Positions 96-7,215 of a stretch of DNA of 7,215 nt are shown here, in pieces. Each line of letters begins with the position of its first letter. Positions within the stretch are counted from its first letter, which is position 1. The DNA lies in contig JACAFS010000047.1 of assembly GCA_013378385.1 (NCBI GenBank), positions 1 to 7,215 on the forward strand, read 5' to 3'. The translations under genes were made by a program, and so were the position numbers. This stretch comes from Nitrososphaerota archaeon (GTDB lineage Archaea > Thermoproteota > Nitrososphaeria > Nitrososphaerales > UBA57). Below the pieces are notes generated by a model. The model did not search any database. It was not told where the DNA came from and saw nothing but the letters and a program-made list of their open reading frames with translations.

Positions 96-1904
96 TTGGA
101 AAAAAATAACAAAGAAATTGAGAATAAAGACGGATATATACTTGGAATAGATTTAGGTACAACAAATTCCGCCGCTGCGGTATATCACAATGATGAAATA
201 AAGGTGATAAAAAGTTCAGACAATAAAATGTCTGATTCGGTAGAGAAAATGTTTCCTTCAATTGTCTATATTAATAAAAAATCGGATGAGATTCTAGTAG
301 GAATAGAAGCGAAAAAGAAGTATGTAAGCAATCCTCAAAATACAATTCTTGAGATAAAAAGAAAGATGGGAACCAAGGAAACAGTAGAAGTTGATGGTGA
401 TAAATATACACCAGAACAAATTTCTTCATACATACTTAAAAAAATAAAAACTGAATCTGAAGAATTCTTGAATGAAAAAGAGATAACTGATGCGATAATA
501 ACAGTTCCAGCATATTTTAATGATGCACAAAGACAATCAACAATAGATGCTGGTAGATTAGCAGGATTAAACGTAATACGAATTGTTAATGAACCAACTG
601 CAGCTTGTTTGGCTTATGGATTAGACAAGATTACACATAAAGACAAAATGAATATCATGGTCTTTACATTTGGTGGAGGAACGCACGATGTAACTACTAT
701 GCTATTAGAAAATGATAAATTCAAAGTAATTGCGACAAGTGGAGATACAAATACAGGAGGAACGGATATTGATCAAGTAATTGTAAATCGACTTAAAGAA
801 TTGATAAAAGAAAAATACAACAAAGATGTTGATGATCCTTCTGTAGAAGCAAGATTGAAACTTGCTGCAGAAGAAGCAAAGATTCATTTATCATATCATT
901 TAGCAGCAGATATTGAAATGGGAAATATATTTCCCGATGATAATTCAACTTTTGAATATACGTTATCTCAGGAAGAATTGGAACAACTATCCATGTCAGT
1001 AGTCAAACGTGTTGAAGGCACAATAAAAACAGTATTATTTGATTCAAGGTTAGGAACTAAAGATATTGATAGATTAATATTGATTGGAGGACAAACGCGT
1101 ATGCCACTTGTAAGAAGAACAGTAGAAGACTACATGCAAACTGCTGCGGAAGAAGGATTAGATCCAATGGCTTGTGTTGCAAATGGTGCTGCAATCAATG
1201 CTGCAATACTACAAGGAAAAATATCATATGAAATGGTAGACGTAACTCCATTGACTTTAGGCGTGGGTACAGCTCCAGGAACTGTACAGAGATTAATTAG
1301 ACGAAATAGTCCTATTCCAATTTCCAGGCAACAGATTTTCACTACGTCAAAAGATAATCAAAAATCAGTAGCTGTAAAAATAGTTCAAGGAGAAAGAATA
1401 ATGACAGCAGACAATACTTTGATAGGAAATTTTACGTTATCAGGAATACCAGAGAGAGAAAGAGGAGTTCCTCAGATAATGGTAAACTTTGATATGGATG
1501 AAAATGGAGTTCTTAATGTTTCTGCAAGAGAGACTTCAAGTGGCGTATCGAAAGAAATAACGATAGAAAACCGCCTGGATGTAAAAGAAACATCGGTTCA
1601 AGAAGCTATGGATGATGCAGACAAATATGCGTATGACGATAGTAAGAAAAAGAATACAATAGAGTTACTTAAGACTGCAGATATGGCAGTCTATCGAGGA
1701 CACAAGGTACAAAAACAATTAATTATACCCAAGATGGATTCGCGAAAACTCAATGTAAAGATGGAGGAAGTTACGAAACTTGCAAAAATGGAGATAATTG
1801 AGAATAATGACAAGAAATTCGCGGAATTACGTAGATTGATTATTGATATTAATGATATTGTAGATCAATTAAAAGAAATATATTCAGTAACAGAAGGATT
1901 ATAG
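96..1904 (+). CDS. dnaK: Hsp70/DnaK-family molecular chaperone (divergent, stand-alone)
   Basis: 602-aa ORF with Hsp70 signatures along its full length: ILGIDLGTTNS (phosphate-1), ITVPAYFNDAQRQSTIDAGRLAGL, RIVNEPTAACLAYGLDK, GGGTHDV (phosphate-2), LIGGQTRMPLV, DVTPLTLG and a conserved beta-sandwich substrate-binding region (IVQGER...GVPQIMVNFDMDENGVLNVSA). An in-frame TAG at 87-89 closes the frame upstream, and there is no in-frame ATG before the ILGIDLG motif. TTG at 96 is therefore the only conventional start, and the start is uncertain. Confidence 0.9.
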   Translation: MEKNNKEIENKDGYILGIDLGTTNSAAAVYHNDEIKVIKSSDNKMSDSVEKMFPSIVYINKKSDEILVGIEAKKKYVSNPQNTILEIKRKMGTKETVEVDGDKYTPEQISSYILKKIKTESEEFLNEKEITDAIITVPAYFNDAQRQSTIDAGRLAGLNVIRIVNEPTAACLAYGLDKITHKDKMNIMVFTFGGGTHDVTTMLLENDKFKVIATSGDTNTGGTDIDQVIVNRLKELIKEKYNKDVDDPSVEARLKLAAEEAKIHLSYHLAADIEMGNIFPDDNSTFEYTLSQEELEQLSMSVVKRVEGTIKTVLFDSRLGTKDIDRLILIGGQTRMPLVRRTVEDYMQTAAEEGLDPMACVANGAAINAAILQGKISYEMVDVTPLTLGVGTAPGTVQRLIRRNSPIPISRQQIFTTSKDNQKSVAVKIVQGERIMTADNTLIGNFTLSGIPERERGVPQIMVNFDMDENGVLNVSARETSSGVSKEITIENRLDVKETSVQEAMDDADKYAYDDSKKKNTIELLKTADMAVYRGHKVQKQLIIPKMDSRKLNVKMEEVTKLAKMEIIENNDKKFAELRRLIIDINDIVDQLKEIYSVTEGL

Positions 1905-1989: not shown

Positions 1990-2517
1990 TTACTTTAATT
2001 CGTTAATTATATCTTTAACTCGACTTGCTTCCCATTTTACTAGTTCGATGTCTTGTTTTGTATAGTAATTACTGTTGTTTCTTAAACCAGCAGTAATCGA
2101 TACATAACGATCATAATAATGCTTTGATGCAACATCTTGATTACTTTTCTCAAGTTTGATTAAAGCGAGCTTACGATCATAATGACCAAGAATTGGGCGT
2201 TCTGGCATTTCTCTGTCATGTTCATTTCTTCCACCATGTTGGGACTTGACGTTGTTGTTATGTAACAAAACATCAATTGCCTGATACAGAGCAGTCCATG
2301 CTTTTTCAGCTGCGTTCTTATAGTCTAACCAGCCAGTAGGTCCTCCACGAGAATATGTGTATGATCTACCTTCATATTCTGTTTTAGAAACATCTGCTTT
2401 GTCTAGTAATGAATCGACTTCTTTAAGAATTTCTTCTGAATTACTCAAAAGTTGATCATACGGAATGGAATAATCCTGCGTATTTTCAACTTTATTTGGA
2501 TGTGTTAGAAAAGTCAT
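1990..2517 (-). CDS. Hypothetical protein, 175 aa, translationally coupled to rbcL; family not recognised (possibly a HEPN/PaREP1-like helical fold)
   Basis: ATG-initiated ORF that fills the whole space between rbcL and the terminator. Its ATG (2517-2515) lies 2 nt after the rbcL stop (TAG, 2522-2520). AAGGAG (2533-2528) has 10 nt of spacing to the ATG. Composition matches the neighbouring genes and the sequence looks predominantly helical. I cannot assign a family with confidence. Confidence 0.7.
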   Translation of the reverse strand: MTFLTHPNKVENTQDYSIPYDQLLSNSEEILKEVDSLLDKADVSKTEYEGRSYTYSRGGPTGWLDYKNAAEKAWTALYQAIDVLLHNNNVKSQHGGRNEHDREMPERPILGHYDRKLALIKLEKSNQDVASKHYYDRYVSITAGLRNNSNYYTKQDIELVKWEASRVKDIINELK

Positions 2518-2519
2518 TT

Positions 2520-3911
2520 CTATTTCTCTCCTTCACCTAATTCAGGAACGACAGATTCTTCAGATGCAACCGCGTATTTGTTACCAAATGCTTGAATAGT
2601 ACCTGCAAGTTCTTCGTGTGTCTTAGCATATTCTTCGACTGGAATTGATTGCATGTAAGCATCAACAGCTTGTCGTGCGCCAATTGCGCCTCCTTTGGTT
2701 CCCCAAGGATGGCCATGAATTCCTCCTCCATTCTGAAGTTGGATATCATTACCCATTAAATCGATTGAGAAATGGTAATTTTGAGGTGTTAATCCACCTG
2801 AACAGATTCCCATCATTGGTTTAATGTGTTCTAATGGATCCTGGATCTTATTCATAATCTGAGGAATTTCAGTGAATTTATTCGCATCACCGAGTTTACC
2901 CCGTGCAGTTCCAACATGAACCATATCACCACCTGCAATTCTTGCAATGAAGTCAGTGACTGGAAGATTAATTCCATGTCTTGGATGACGTGTAAGTGCT
3001 GCATGTGATGCACGATGTAAGTGAATTGGAACATTGATACTAGCATCTTCTGCAAGAGCACGAAGTGCAGGGTACCATGTACACATAAAGTTTAACATCA
3101 TTCCTCGAGCGCCATGTGCAATCATTCGATCTGCAGTTTCCAAGGTAGTTTCCAAGTCAGTAGTGACTTGTGGAACATAAAACATCTCACCTTCAGGATG
3201 ATGTCCTTCAGATTTAGCTTTATCAAGTGCTTCATAAATCTTTGTAATTCGATCCATTAAAGGAGAACACCATTGATTATGATAAGTCTCATCATCTTTG
3301 TAAGTGTCAAAATCACCACAAGCTGCATCATAGAATTGATCAGCTGCGCCTTGATCTGTAACACCCATTTTAGGTTTCAATGTAGCACCAAGATGAGGTC
3401 TTCTTGTCTCTGTTGTACCACAGATTTTTCTCATACCTTCAGTACCAAATTGAGGGCCTTTGAAGAGTTTGAGAATACTCTTAGGTAATTCTAGGTCAAC
3501 CCATTTACAATTAGGAATTGGAGTGAATCCCATCCAATTTCCTGTAATAAATGTAAAGAGGTCAGGGATACCACGATTATCTATATCTAGTAGATAAAGC
3601 GGGTATGCAACTTTGACTAAACCTGAATGTTTAGCAGATCCACTTGGATCTTCATACTCCCAGGAGAATACTTTAGCAGCAGTTTTGTGTGCTAAATCAG
3701 TTGCTGTAGAAACGTCAGTAAAAGTACCTACGGATTGTTCGGCAGCAATAATTACACCGGCGTGATCGATAGTCATTCTAGGATCACAAGTGATGAAATA
3801 TGTTGCGACAACGTACTTGTCTGGATCTATTTGATCAGGGGTTGTTTGAAATACACTACTTTCACTGTGTTCAACAGTTGGTGTATTCCATTGTCTTTTA
3901 ATTTCTGGCAT
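2520..3911 (-). CDS. rbcL: Ribulose-1,5-bisphosphate carboxylase/oxygenase large subunit, archaeal form III-type (bona fide carboxylase type, not a RuBisCO-like protein)
   Basis: All diagnostic RuBisCO motifs are present: AAEQSVGTFT (E60/T65 region), ITGNWMGF (N123), TLKPKMG (K175/K177), GDFDTYKDDE (carbamylated K201, D203, E204), IHLHRASHAA (H294/R295/H298), VHVGTARGKLG (H327/K334), CSGGL (S379-G381), GGGIHGHPWG (G403/G404). The C-terminal IPVEEYAKTHEELA closely resembles my recollection of Thermococcus form III RbcL (IPLDEYAKTHKELA). The ORF track starts at TTG 3920 (MIKM...). I prefer ATG at 3911 (MPEIK...) because the TTG lies inside a T9 tract only 19 nt from the TATA box. Confidence 0.93.
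   Translation of the reverse strand: MPEIKRQWNTPTVEHSESSVFQTTPDQIDPDKYVVATYFITCDPRMTIDHAGVIIAAEQSVGTFTDVSTATDLAHKTAAKVFSWEYEDPSGSAKHSGLVKVAYPLYLLDIDNRGIPDLFTFITGNWMGFTPIPNCKWVDLELPKSILKLFKGPQFGTEGMRKICGTTETRRPHLGATLKPKMGVTDQGAADQFYDAACGDFDTYKDDETYHNQWCSPLMDRITKIYEALDKAKSEGHHPEGEMFYVPQVTTDLETTLETADRMIAHGARGMMLNFMCTWYPALRALAEDASINVPIHLHRASHAALTRHPRHGINLPVTDFIARIAGGDMVHVGTARGKLGDANKFTEIPQIMNKIQDPLEHIKPMMGICSGGLTPQNYHFSIDLMGNDIQLQNGGGIHGHPWGTKGGAIGARQAVDAYMQSIPVEEYAKTHEELAGTIQAFGNKYAVASEESVVPELGEGEK
2528..2533 (-). promoter_or_regulatory. Shine-Dalgarno-like ribosome-binding site (AAGGAG) for orf175, embedded in the last codons of rbcL
   Basis: The minus strand reads GGTGAAGGAGAGAAATAGAAATG: AAGGAG, 10 nt of spacing, then ATG. 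The spacing is the same as for the GAGGA motif upstream of the second ATG of the SDR gene. Confidence 0.55.
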
Positions 3912-3939
3912 CTTAATCAAAAAAAAATGTGCTTTGGGA

Positions 3940-4942: not shown

Positions 4943-4947
4943 TCCTC
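4943..4947 (-). promoter_or_regulatory. Shine-Dalgarno-like site (GAGGA) overlapping the tal stop codon, serving the SDR gene
   Basis: The minus strand reads TAGAGGATATGTTGAAAATG. GAGGA overlaps the TAG stop of tal and has 10 nt of spacing to ATG 4932. Confidence 0.45.
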
Positions 4948-5639
4948 TATTGTTGTAGTGTTTCGTCAGAACCTAAGTCAGACATGAATTGATCAAATCC
5001 AATCTTGGTTAATGGATGTTTAAACATCATATCTAGTACTTTGAATGGCATTGTAGCTAGAGGAGCCCCCATCATGGCAGCTTGCACTACATGAACAGGA
5101 TGTCGAATACTAGAAACTAGTGTGTCTGCTTTATTTGGAATGTGTTCCTCGTTATCTTTATAATTATTTCGAATTTGTTCAATTTCCTCTATAAGATGTA
5201 AATTACCATCAAGGCCAATATCATCTAGTCTTCCTATAAACGGACTAACAACTCGTGCTCCTGCTTTTGCAGCCAATAGATATTGAGTGGCAGAGAAAGT
5301 GAGAGTGACGTTACAATCAATTCCAGAGTCAAACAATTGTCGAACTGCTTTTAGTCCTGCCTTTGTATTTGCAACTTTAACATAGATTTTACTACTGTTT
5401 TTACCGTATGTGTTAACTAGGTCTTGACCTTCTTTAACAATCTTTGCGGTATCGTTCGTGGTAGTTTCTAAACTAACAGGTTTACCGTTACAGATTTCTA
5501 CGATTTCTGAATATAATTCATGGGTATCTTTACTTTCTTTTGCAACCAGAGTAGGGTTAGTTGTAACTCCGTCCAACATTCCCATATCTTTTGCTTCTTT
5601 GATTTGCTCAACATTTGCGGTATCTAAGAAAAATTTCAT
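4947..5639 (-). CDS. tal: Transaldolase, short TalB/Fsa-type (class I aldolase; fructose-6-phosphate aldolase activity not excluded)
   Basis: 230 aa. Family hallmarks of the ~220-aa transaldolase/FSA subfamily are present: MKFFLDTANVEQIKEA...GVTTNPTL, the Schiff-base lysine context IYVKVANT, NVTLTFS, VSPFIGRLDD, and SSIRHPVHVVQAAMMGAPLATMPFKVLDMMFKHPLT. Confidence 0.9.
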   Translation of the reverse strand: MKFFLDTANVEQIKEAKDMGMLDGVTTNPTLVAKESKDTHELYSEIVEICNGKPVSLETTTNDTAKIVKEGQDLVNTYGKNSSKIYVKVANTKAGLKAVRQLFDSGIDCNVTLTFSATQYLLAAKAGARVVSPFIGRLDDIGLDGNLHLIEEIEQIRNNYKDNEEHIPNKADTLVSSIRHPVHVVQAAMMGAPLATMPFKVLDMMFKHPLTKIGFDQFMSDLGSDETLQQ

Positions 5640-5737: not shown

Positions 5738-7215
5738 ATGACAGGCGAGAGATTAGAGGAGTTATGTATCAATACAATTAGATTTTTGTCGGTTGATGCT
5801 GTAGAAGCGGCAAATTCAGGCCATCCGGGTCAGCCAATGGAAGCAGCGGCAATGGGATACAAATTATTTACGCAAATTTTAAAACATAATCCAAGCAATC
5901 CAAAATGGGTTAATCGAGATCGATTCATTTTATCATCAGGTCATGGATCAATGATACTATATGCATTGTTACATCTGTCAGGATATGATTTAGCTCTAGA
6001 CGAGATTAAGAAGTTTAGAAAACTGGGAAGTAAGGCTCCAGGTCATCCTGAATTTGGAGAGACTCCAGGTGTTGAAACAACTACCGGTCCATTAGGACAA
6101 GGTTTTAGTGCTGGTGTCGGTATGGCGTTTGCACAAAGGTATCTAGCTAACAGATTCAATACGAACGATCATAAAATAATCGATCACAAGATTTACGCAT
6201 TTTGCAGTGATGGAGACTTGATGGAAGGAATTTCTTCAGAAGCGGCTGCTGTTGCAGGTCACCAAAAATTCAATAATTTAATCTATGTTCACTTAGACAA
6301 TCACATTAGTATTGATGGAAATACTGAATTAACTACAAATGAAGACATAAAGAAGAGATTTGAAGCACATGGATGGTTTGTCCAGAATATTGAAGGAAAT
6401 GATTTATCGAGTTTTAGTGAAGCAATAAAGAATAGTCAAGAACAGGAGGAAAAACCTTCGTTAATTATTGCTAGAACGCATATTGGCTTCGGAAGTCCAA
6501 ATAAACAAGATAGTGAAGCTGCACACGGAGCTCCATTAGGAGCAGAAGAAACGAAGCTTACGAAAGAGAATTTAGGTTGGCCTTTAGAACCGACATTTTA
6601 TATTCCCGATGAAGTAAAGCAGGAATTTCAAAAAGTTGTGACTAACGGAGATGGTTATGAGAACAACTGGAATAAGATTTATGACGCGTATAAGAATGCA
6701 AATAAAGAACTAGCTGAAGAATTTGAAGATACAATAAATGGCAACCTTCCAAGTAATTGGGATAGCAATATGCCTACATTCAAAGAAGATGAGTCTCTTG
6801 CTACAAGGCAAGCGTCTGGAAAGACATTAAATGCATTGGCTGAGAATATTCCGGCCATAATTGGTGGATCAGCAGATTTGATGGATTCCACAAATGTACG
6901 AATTAAGAATTCAGTAGATTCTTTACCCGATGCCCCTCATGGACGAAATATCCATTTCGGTATAAGAGAACATGCAATGGGTGCAATAGTACATGGAATG
7001 GCTGCTTATGGAGGAGTAATTCCGTTTGGAAGTACATTCCTAATTTTTTCAGACTATATGAGAGGTTCGGTTAGATTGGCGTCTTTGATGGGATTACGTG
7101 TTGTTTTTGTCTATACTCACGATAGCATAGGAGTGGGTGAAGATGGCCCTACACATCAACCGATTGAACAAGTATCTAATTTACGTGCAGTGCCAAATCT
7201 TACTGTAATACGACC
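5738..7215 (+). CDS. tkt: Transketolase, full-length fused type (3' end beyond the window)
   Basis: My own translation from ATG 5738 is open to the window end (492 full codons). It gives MTGERLEELCINTIRFLSVDAVEAANSGHPGQPM..., SSGHGSMILYALLHLSGY, FRKLGSKAPGHPE, TTTGPLGQG, CSDGDLMEGISSEAA (ThDP/metal motif), LDNHISIDG and HGAPLG. It then continues without interruption into the Pyr domain: ATRQASGKTLNAL, GGSADL, HFGIREHAMGAI, THDSIGVGEDGPTHQPIEQ. The gene is absent from the supplied ORF track, presumably because it is open-ended. Confidence 0.93.
   Translation, partial: MTGERLEELCINTIRFLSVDAVEAANSGHPGQPMEAAAMGYKLFTQILKHNPSNPKWVNRDRFILSSGHGSMILYALLHLSGYDLALDEIKKFRKLGSKAPGHPEFGETPGVETTTGPLGQGFSAGVGMAFAQRYLANRFNTNDHKIIDHKIYAFCSDGDLMEGISSEAAAVAGHQKFNNLIYVHLDNHISIDGNTELTTNEDIKKRFEAHGWFVQNIEGNDLSSFSEAIKNSQEQEEKPSLIIARTHIGFGSPNKQDSEAAHGAPLGAEETKLTKENLGWPLEPTFYIPDEVKQEFQKVVTNGDGYENNWNKIYDAYKNANKELAEEFEDTINGNLPSNWDSNMPTFKEDESLATRQASGKTLNALAENIPAIIGGSADLMDSTNVRIKNSVDSLPDAPHGRNIHFGIREHAMGAIVHGMAAYGGVIPFGSTFLIFSDYMRGSVRLASLMGLRVVFVYTHDSIGVGEDGPTHQPIEQVSNLRAVPNLTVIR

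Follow-up and report, generated by a model that had tools for sequence, protein, structure and literature searches.

The window analysed in the present work, that is, the whole stretch of 7,215 nucleotides of contig JACAFS010000047.1 (Nitrososphaerota archaeon, assembly GCA_013378385.1), harbors the rbcL gene, coding for the RuBisCO large subunit, followed by an open reading frame (ORF) of 175 codons, hereinafter orf175, and by a convergent gene coding for a divergent Hsp70. The source of the locus is the heterotrophic marine Thaumarchaeota (HMT, pSL12-like Nitrososphaerales). The link of orf175 to RuBisCO and Hsp70 is striking and purely contextual: in every related locus with enough flanking sequence, a homolog of orf175 has both rbcL and the divergent Hsp70 gene no more than about 6 kb away. 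A first-pass annotation of the window had proposed orf175 as a candidate accessory or partner protein of RuBisCO; this idea is partly supported, from gene context only, a link to Hsp70 or an inherited synteny being a nearly equally good explanation of the data.

The rbcL-orf175 junction

The features of the window involved in the organization of the two genes are the following:

3911-2520, minus strand: rbcL, divergent form III-a RuBisCO large subunit of 463 residues (Pfam, NCBIfam, and PDB matches)
2517-1990, minus strand: orf175, helical protein of 175 residues and 20 kDa (ORF list, family alignment)
96-1904, plus strand: divergent DnaK-like Hsp70 of 602 residues, convergent with orf175 (Pfam HSP70, E 5e-152)
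3947-3940, minus strand: TATA-like box TATAAATA, a candidate archaeal promoter read from the sequence, 28 nt 5' of the rbcL ATG
2533-2528, minus strand: Shine-Dalgarno-like AAGGAG within the final rbcL codons (G-E-G-E-K), 10 nt 5' of the orf175 ATG
1943-1910, minus strand: hairpin (1943-1925) followed by a T9 run (1918-1910), a likely terminator situated between orf175 and the Hsp70 gene convergent with it

On the minus strand, the stop codon of rbcL (TAG, 2522-2520) and the start codon of orf175 (ATG, 2517-2515) are separated by two nucleotides (AA). These coordinates, the position of the AAGGAG motif inside the last rbcL codons, and the presence of a single hairpin plus T9 terminator, placed after orf175, had been reported in the first-pass annotation and were all confirmed; the rbcL start, which it had set at 3920, was instead moved to the ATG at 3911, as in the relatives, the in-frame TTG at 3920 (466 residues) being less likely. 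The two genes share the same strand, a gap of a few nucleotides, and a ribosome-binding motif embedded in the upstream gene, with no terminator in between, i.e., the organization of a coupled bicistron.

The junction was then compared with those of 11 related marine loci, which include several species-level metagenome-assembled genomes (MAGs). The element GAAGGAG-N10-ATG, together with the 2-nt gap, is present in 10 of them, the exception being L018, which has GAAGGAA and a gap of 1 nt. The residues encoded at the conserved GAAGGAG are variable (GEGEK, EEGDK, DEGGK, and GEGEQ). Moreover, among 35 gene starts in two 20-kb relatives, a strong Shine-Dalgarno-like motif was found at orf175 only, and AAGGAG occurs just eight times in the 41 kb of the same two relatives, counting both strands. 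Since the motif is kept despite the amino acid changes, and since such motifs are otherwise rare, the junction appears to be more than a chance arrangement. In archaea, first cistrons are often leaderless, and ribosome-binding sites are found on internal cistrons; the restriction of the Shine-Dalgarno motif to orf175 fits this pattern.

The hairpin plus T9 run is the sole terminator-like site between positions 1800 and 4100 on either strand; as shuffled sequence yields 1.2 ± 1.1 such sites, this count alone is not significant. Because the TATAAATA box precedes the rbcL ATG, rbcL and orf175 look like a transcription unit of their own. As read from the sequence, this predicted two-gene unit comprises the TATA-like box, rbcL, the 2-nt gap with GAAGGAG, orf175, and the hairpin plus T9 terminator. 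A further T9 run (3919-3927, minus strand) immediately precedes the rbcL ATG, on the 3' side of the TATA-like box. In a count table in the supplement of PMC7300363, a row labeled 3_30, presumably the orf175 ortholog, has low non-zero counts; the header of that table is unconfirmed, rbcL was not located in it, and the row was not used as evidence.

Gene context across the relatives

The orf175 family is confined to Nitrososphaerales genomes carrying the same RbcL clade. All 14 species genomes harboring the orf possess an RbcL of 73-99% identity encoded within 6 kb of it; in the metagenome loci anchored on rbcL, the orf was found in 26 out of 44, and all the others end before the flank where it would lie. 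None of the three outcomes set beforehand as counting against a role in RuBisCO was clearly observed; among them were homologs lying mostly away from rbcL, related rbcL orthologs lacking the orf, and a confident match to an unrelated, well-characterized family. As to the first two, the homologs are located close to rbcL in the species genomes and in all the informative metagenome loci, and no rbcL ortholog without the orf was found among the loci with enough flank; as to the last, the only match is a weak one, to an uncharacterized family (see below). In the sister RbcL clade (52% identity), two loci showed neither the orf nor the Hsp70 gene in about 10 kb downstream of rbcL, both contigs beginning just upstream of this gene.

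Four arrangements can be depicted, where the angle bracket indicates the direction of each gene:

Arrangement A (marine HMT, 32-36% GC): rbcL> orf> <hsp70, with the 2-nt junction
Arrangement B (L021 and L045, 46-47% GC): rbcL> hsp70> <orf
Arrangement C (e.g., L023, L029, L030, L042-L044, L057, and L058): rbcL> cys56> <orf hsp70>
Arrangement D (about 60% GC, e.g., L022, L024-L026, L031, and L032): <hsp70, about 4 kb, orf> <TAL <TKT <RPE <TKT <PfkB rbcL> cys56> <PRPP synthase <IF-2B

Here TAL stands for transaldolase, TKT for transketolase, PRPP for phosphoribosyl pyrophosphate, and IF-2B for the family of the ribose-1,5-bisphosphate (R15P) isomerase. Arrangements A and B are one inversion of the orf-hsp70 pair apart. 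The proximity of the orf to both rbcL and the Hsp70 gene has outlasted at least three rearrangements, with orf sequences that share only 37-45% identity.

The Hsp70 gene accompanies rbcL and the orf in every arrangement, lying within about 4 kb of the orf homolog in all the informative loci. The protein scores 538 bits with the NCBIfam DnaK model, below its cutoff of 648 bits, and its best PDB match is the Geobacillus DnaK (408 bits). No grpE or dnaJ gene was seen next to it in the window or in the flanks of the relatives. In the HMT study, this Hsp70 forms a small cluster of its own, annotated "6 6" like RbcL, the meaning of these numbers being unconfirmed.

Most of the non-marine loci (those with arrangements C and D) harbor, on the same strand as rbcL and 5-16 nt 3' of it, a conserved and Cys-rich ORF of 55-57 residues (MKNHTKGDIFCSCGACPHDNSLQCADYGCTCC...YELHYLKSVGPPATNF), named cys56. 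Examples, from related loci only and not from the window, are:

L031:16601-16768
L032:16515-16685
L029:6131-6292
L030:10779-10621

It has no Pfam family and is absent from the marine HMT and B-type loci. As a candidate partner of RuBisCO, cys56 ranks no lower than orf175.

RbcL, its C-terminal tail, and the orf175 family

RbcL matches the Pfam families RuBisCO_large_N (PF02788, E 1.4e-16) and RuBisCO_large (PF00016, E 2.9e-49). Its best NCBIfam model is TIGR03326 (rubisco_III), with 279.5 bits, under the cutoff of 497 bits, and the closest solved structures are 2cwx, 8dht, 6hun, and 1geh, the form III enzymes 2cwx and 1geh being the best ones. The catalytic motifs LKPKMG, YKDDET, HLHRASH, HVGT, GKL, SGG, and GGGIHGHP are invariant in the clade alignment, and the catalytic residues K175, K177, the carbamylated K201, D203, E204, H294, H327, K334, S379, and G403/404 were judged to be retained. 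Pfam scans of the window, and of flanks of 20 kb in the relatives, detected no RbcS domain. According to these data, RbcL belongs to a divergent branch of form III (III-a) RuBisCO.

The RuBisCO half of the finding is already known, since the enzyme was described in the papers on HMT by Aylward and Santoro in 2020 (PMC7300363) and by Reji and Francis in 2019/2020 (bioRxiv 10.1101/2019.12.22.886556). In the published trees, HMT RuBisCO falls in III-a with long branches, and both papers report two unusual substitutions in the active-site region and the absence of AMP phosphorylase (PMC7300363; bioRxiv 10.1101/2019.12.22.886556); 17 of 19 residues were found to be conserved (PMC7300363). The enzyme of the window is the same: it is 95-99% identical to its counterparts in HMT MAGs, its variant GDFDTYKDDE corresponds to the reported D223/Y226 substitutions, and its neighbors are likewise PGK, PRPP synthase, R15P isomerase, RPE, TKT, and TAL (PMC7300363). 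In the HMT_ATL MAG, rbcL is gene 3_29 (PMC7300363); the ORF that comes after it (gene 3_30), the family of this ORF, the link to Hsp70, and the RbcL tail are not discussed in the searched text of the main articles and supplements.

The presence of extra C-terminal residues in RbcL, pointed out in the first-pass annotation, is real; they form a conserved tail specific to the clade:

2523-2570, minus strand: acidic RbcL tail YAVASEESVVPELGEGEK, beyond the form III structure alignments, isoelectric point (pI) 4.3

The alignments with the Pyrococcus and Thermococcus form III enzymes stop at residue 447 of the 466-residue ORF starting with TTG, i.e., residue 444 of the 463-residue protein. The motif YA(V/I)AS..VPELG is kept across the RbcL clade of at least 72% identity; in most of the non-marine relatives, VPELG is followed by ..DYRKMFxSE, making the tail 9-10 residues longer. 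The tail is shorter or absent in the 52%- and 44%-identity clades, the former having a short version only, and is missing from more distant form III enzymes. HMT RbcL ends just past VPELG, precisely where the ribosome-binding motif of orf175 is encoded. The pI of the tail is to be compared with the median pI of 9.0 of the orf family; an acidic tail facing a mostly basic family would be compatible with the tail as a binding handle, no more. A joint loss of the distal tail DYRKMFxSE and cys56 was considered and rejected, as the B-type locus L045 has the tail without cys56.

Concerning orf175 itself, the ratio of nonsynonymous to synonymous substitution rates (dN/dS) with respect to its orthologs is 0.13-0.34 (0.06-0.14 for rbcL), and it behaves as a genuine gene under purifying selection. 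A profile search retrieved 144 clusters at 90% identity, mostly coding for proteins of about 156 residues from genomes of 43-63% GC, the overall range of the host genomes being 33% to 63%. The family size obtained from a single-sequence scan of 1.84 billion representatives (nine clusters) is thus misleading. In the alignment of 87 members, 22 positions are invariant: N12, Y16, L38, A41, E49, R51, Y55, R57, G58, G59, G62, W74, Q79, D82, R115, L119, Y135, Y138, R146, Y151, D156, and E163. The HMT proteins harbor an additional region, missing from all the non-marine homologs:

2209-2256, minus strand: HMT-specific insertion of 16 residues (NNVKSQHGGRNEHDRE, residues about 88-103 of orf175), predicted to be disordered, with pLDDT <50 at residues 95-104

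In two loci (L017:10001-10699, from the HMT_ATL MAG, and L061:3779-4453), the ortholog has 232 residues, owing to an in-frame tandem duplication of 57 residues (LYQAIDVLL...DVASKH) spanning helix 2, the insertion, and helix 3; this could be either a real variant or an assembly artefact.

The sole Pfam family that recurs among the members of the orf family is PaREP1 (PF05942), found in 13 of 87 (best E 2.5e-4); in orf175, it covers residues 65-170 and profile positions 21-114 of 115 (E 5e-4). With the alignment of 87 sequences as input, AlphaFold predicted a bundle of long helices (pLDDT 79.5); this model superseded a first one based on nine sequences, whose pLDDT was 73 and whose fold matches were weaker. 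The top Foldseek matches of the 87-sequence model in the PDB are the uncharacterized 3mfn, the HEPN protein 2hsb, the PaREP1 chain 2q00_B (probability 0.99, E 0.2, target-normalized TM 0.62), several HEPN toxins, and TM0613; 2q00 is named as the PaREP1 structure in a survey of HEPN proteins (PMC3710099). Since the weak Pfam and the weak structural lines converge, the fold is probably a PaREP1/HEPN-like bundle, and orf175 represents an undescribed, divergent HEPN/PaREP1-like family. The searches with other resources gave no further assignment: PDB chain searches with profiles of 9, 12, and 87 members retrieved only chance matches to annexin and viral fusion proteins (E >0.3), and NCBIfam, PADLOC, and BFVD gave nothing significant for orf175. 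An hhalign comparison of the family with the single HEPN (PF05168) protein of L028 gave a probability of 7%, which is uninformative because the target is one sequence of a different HEPN family. That protein is part of a canonical MNT (NTP_transf_2) plus HEPN (PF05168) pair at L028:10118-11004, 8 kb from an rbcL of the 52%-identity clade.

The resemblance to PaREP1/PaREP8 (HEPN-T clade, PF05942; 2q00) consists of a match along most of the profile in 13 of 87 members and of a predicted helical bundle that aligns with 2q00_B, and both families are archaeal. The orf family differs in its additional helix at the N-terminus, in its invariant loop, and in being single-copy, with no tandem arrays and no MNT or REase partners. 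Furthermore, in PaREP1 the Rx4-6H motif is without its Arg and retains the His (PMC3710099), whereas the orf family keeps the Arg and has a Tyr in place of the His: the loop before the last helix has R146, N147, and Y151 invariant or nearly so, that is, R146-x4-Y151 instead of the catalytic Rx4-6H, and no conserved His was found anywhere in the 87-member alignment. The parallel with RbcX drawn in the first-pass annotation, and its suggestion of a small-subunit-like partner, were not borne out. Pfam scans, including those of the 87 members, and fold searches gave no signal for RbcX, RbcS, Raf, GrpE, or BAG; for RbcX, there was no Pfam match at E up to 1, and none of the 50 best Foldseek PDB matches of either model was an RbcX chain.

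Possible roles of orf175 and the remaining genes

Form II and form III RuBisCOs are regarded as needing no dedicated partners, and, to our knowledge, every known RuBisCO accessory factor is part of a form I or form II system. RbcX is a small all-helical assembly chaperone of form I enzymes, encoded directly downstream of rbcL and acting on the RbcL C-terminal tail. HMT orf175 occupies the same gene position, and HMT RbcL has a conserved tail; however, the tail VPELG is unrelated to EIKFEFD, there is no rbcS, and the position of orf175 is not kept outside HMT. A precedent for an extra helical element that stabilizes higher oligomers in an archaeal form II/III-type enzyme is the assembly domain of the Methanococcoides burtonii RuBisCO, a small-subunit mimic (PMC5399129, PDB 5mac), but this element is an insertion within RbcL rather than a separate gene, with no sequence or fold relation to orf175.

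We consider it possible, at somewhat less than an even chance, that orf175 is a non-catalytic binding protein of the RuBisCO module, maybe acting on RbcL directly and possibly together with Hsp70. Taken on its own, the claim that it is a direct partner of RbcL is unlikely, and unlikely too is the fullest version, i.e., that orf175 is the first case of an accessory factor dedicated to an archaeal RuBisCO of the large-subunit-only kind (form III), a HEPN-derived and non-catalytic bundle of helices that binds the acidic tail and works with Hsp70 (plus cys56 in the non-marine relatives) in folding, assembly, or regulation in aerobic Thaumarchaeota. As a mechanism, orf175 would be an accessory or adaptor protein that binds RbcL, plausibly via the conserved acidic C-terminal tail, and/or passes RbcL on to the neighboring Hsp70. 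In the marine lineage, with its streamlined genomes, orf175 would have come to lie directly behind rbcL through inversion of the orf-Hsp70 pair; it may since then have been co-transcribed with rbcL and translated from the internal ribosome-binding site.

Several observations weigh against orf175 as a RuBisCO protein. The coupled organization does not extend across the orf family, being limited to the marine clade (arrangement A); in arrangements B-D, the orf is a transcription unit of its own, located on the strand opposite to rbcL, downstream of Hsp70, or at a distance of 4.7 kb. Since these arrangements are uncoupled, we infer that coupling with rbcL was not ancestral for the orf family and represents a feature derived in the marine clade, whose genomes are streamlined. 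Therefore, of the translational coupling proposed in the first-pass annotation, the junction itself holds and is conserved in the marine HMT relatives, but the argument drawn from it does not generalize past one clade. Moreover, in arrangements C and D it is cys56, unrelated to orf175, that is coupled to rbcL, and the orf adjoins Hsp70 in A, B, and C and rbcL (or rbcL-cys56) in A and C; as Hsp70 adjacency is thus found in three of the four arrangements and rbcL adjacency in two, the context fails to single out RbcL as the partner. All the carriers of the orf belong to one order-level lineage, so co-occurrence and synteny may mirror shared ancestry rather than function. As for the protein, HMT orf175 has a pI of 6.1 and is not basic, its PaREP1 score (20.4 bits) is under the gathering cutoff of 24.4 bits, and the Foldseek E values are all at least 0.05, with none <0.001. 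What stands of the proposed accessory role is that the orf is never found away from this RbcL clade and that the tail is conserved, Hsp70 being just as tightly linked.

One rival explanation is that orf175 is a bystander, i.e., a lineage-specific PaREP1/HEPN-like protein unrelated to RuBisCO, kept in place by inherited synteny, with the tight HMT junction as a by-product of streamlining after a local inversion; we give it a distinctly less than even, though substantial, probability. In its favor, the coupling is restricted to the marine clade and the carriers to Nitrososphaerales, HMT genomes are reduced to about 1 Mb (PMC7300363), equally tight junctions occur elsewhere in the cluster, as between TAL and the gene following it, separated by 2 nt in the window and by 3 nt in relatives, and PaREP1/HEPN proteins are usually not metabolic accessories (PMC3710099). 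If only inherited synteny is at work, the lesson is that partnership cannot be read from a 2-nt junction alone when the genome is streamlined. A bystander would hardly be expected, however, to remain a neighbor of rbcL and Hsp70, no more than 6 kb away, across at least three rearrangements and such a deep divergence (37-45% identity, GC from 33% to 63%), nor to be absent outside the RbcL clade, nor to conserve a strong internal ribosome-binding motif that is rare in these genomes. The adjacency to Hsp70 could be taken as the primary one, orf175 being a cofactor of this chaperone, e.g., a nucleotide-exchange factor or substrate adaptor, linked to RuBisCO only through RbcL as a client or not at all. 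The direct contact of the two genes in arrangements A, B, and C (in C, as a divergent pair with a spacer of about 85-160 bp), the lack of grpE and dnaJ beside Hsp70, the divergence of the latter, and its separate small cluster in the HMT study are in line with this possibility. Sacsin combines a J domain and a HEPN domain in one protein and thus offers a case of a non-catalytic HEPN-type bundle tied to the Hsp70 system, although it is eukaryotic and multidomain, with no homology to orf175 beyond the superfamily level. A cofactor of this kind is nevertheless improbable: neither GrpE nor BAG nor any other exchange factor (HspBP1 included) came up in the Pfam and fold searches, the orf lies 4 kb away from Hsp70 in arrangement D, and the two are never co-directional.

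Some HEPN-type domains bind nucleotides, and orf175 might be an enzyme or metabolite sensor of the pathway that binds a phosphorylated sugar or nucleotide and supplies or regulates a missing step, e.g., the formation of R15P from PRPP. The invariant R51, R57, R115, R146, Y55, Y135, Y138, and Y151, together with the E-x-R...Y-x-R-G-G loop, suggest a putative binding site, and the gene is embedded in a cluster with PRPP synthase, R15P isomerase, RuBisCO, and PGK; the R15P-forming step in HMT has no assigned enzyme, AMP phosphorylase being absent (PMC7300363; bioRxiv 10.1101/2019.12.22.886556). We regard this role as very improbable, given that the family has no conserved His or Cys and few of the conserved acidic residues typical of a phosphohydrolase, that Pfam, NCBIfam, and PDB profile searches matched no enzyme family, and that a bare helical bundle would be an unusual catalytic scaffold. 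Finally, a HEPN-type RNase toxin or defense gene inserted beside rbcL, to which the weak PaREP1/HEPN similarity could point, is largely refuted and scarcely credible: the invariant Tyr replaces the histidine of Rx4-6H, none of the four arrangements has an MNT, other nucleotidyltransferase, antitoxin, or REase neighbor or tandem PaREP copies near the orf, the PADLOC defense models matched none of four family members (0 families), and the gene is single-copy, vertically inherited, and conserved in position.

HMT archaea are abundant in the dark ocean, where their highly expressed, divergent form III-a RuBisCO operates in an oxic setting. The gene set travelling with this RuBisCO, that is, the HEPN-like bundle, the divergent Hsp70, and, in relatives, the Cys-rich mini-protein, provides cheap candidates for its assembly, protection, or regulation.

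RNA gene searches revealed no tRNA genes or Rfam families in the window, whose remaining genes are:

4941-3982, minus strand: SDR of the NAD-dependent epimerase/dehydratase family, upstream of rbcL (Pfam Epimerase, E 6e-36)
5639-4947, minus strand: transaldolase/fructose-6-phosphate aldolase, TAL (Pfam TAL_FSA, E 2e-49; TIGR00875, 226 bits)
about 5738-7215, plus strand: 5' part of a transketolase gene, divergent from TAL and continuing beyond the end of the window, with no entry in the ORF list

The place of the SDR gene upstream of rbcL is kept in arrangements A-C. The TAL stop codon (4947-4949) and the SDR ATG (4941-4939) are separated by a gap given as 2 nt, and in the relatives L001 and L005 the junction reads TAG-AAA-ATG (3-nt gap); in both, a Shine-Dalgarno motif is missing. 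As these junctions are tight and lack such a motif, junctions in the termination-reinitiation style seem to be common in the cluster. In the marine contigs with exact or near-exact orf175, the gene order is HMG-CoA reductase, PGK, PRPP synthase, R15P isomerase (IF-2B family), RPE, transketolase, TAL, SDR, rbcL, orf175, Hsp70, and geranylgeranyl reductase, so that rbcL is embedded in a pentose-phosphate/PRPP/R15P isomerase/PGK cluster. The species-representative genomes sharing this marine locus are Nitrososphaerales/Thaumarchaeota MAGs, including the ASW2, ATL, and ALOHA bins of HMT.

In the related locus L012 (contig_102965, 96 kb), frameshifts split the Hsp70, aminotransferase, transketolase, rbcL, and orf175 homologs; they are typical of long-read assembly errors, and the 133-residue protein P0016 has a spurious C-terminus. 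Lastly, in the high-GC D-type loci, a PfkB-family sugar kinase divergently adjoins rbcL (L031:13873-14907 and L032:13835-14869), in the place occupied by SDR in HMT; this kinase could perform a ribose-1-phosphate kinase or phosphoribulokinase-like step feeding RuBisCO.

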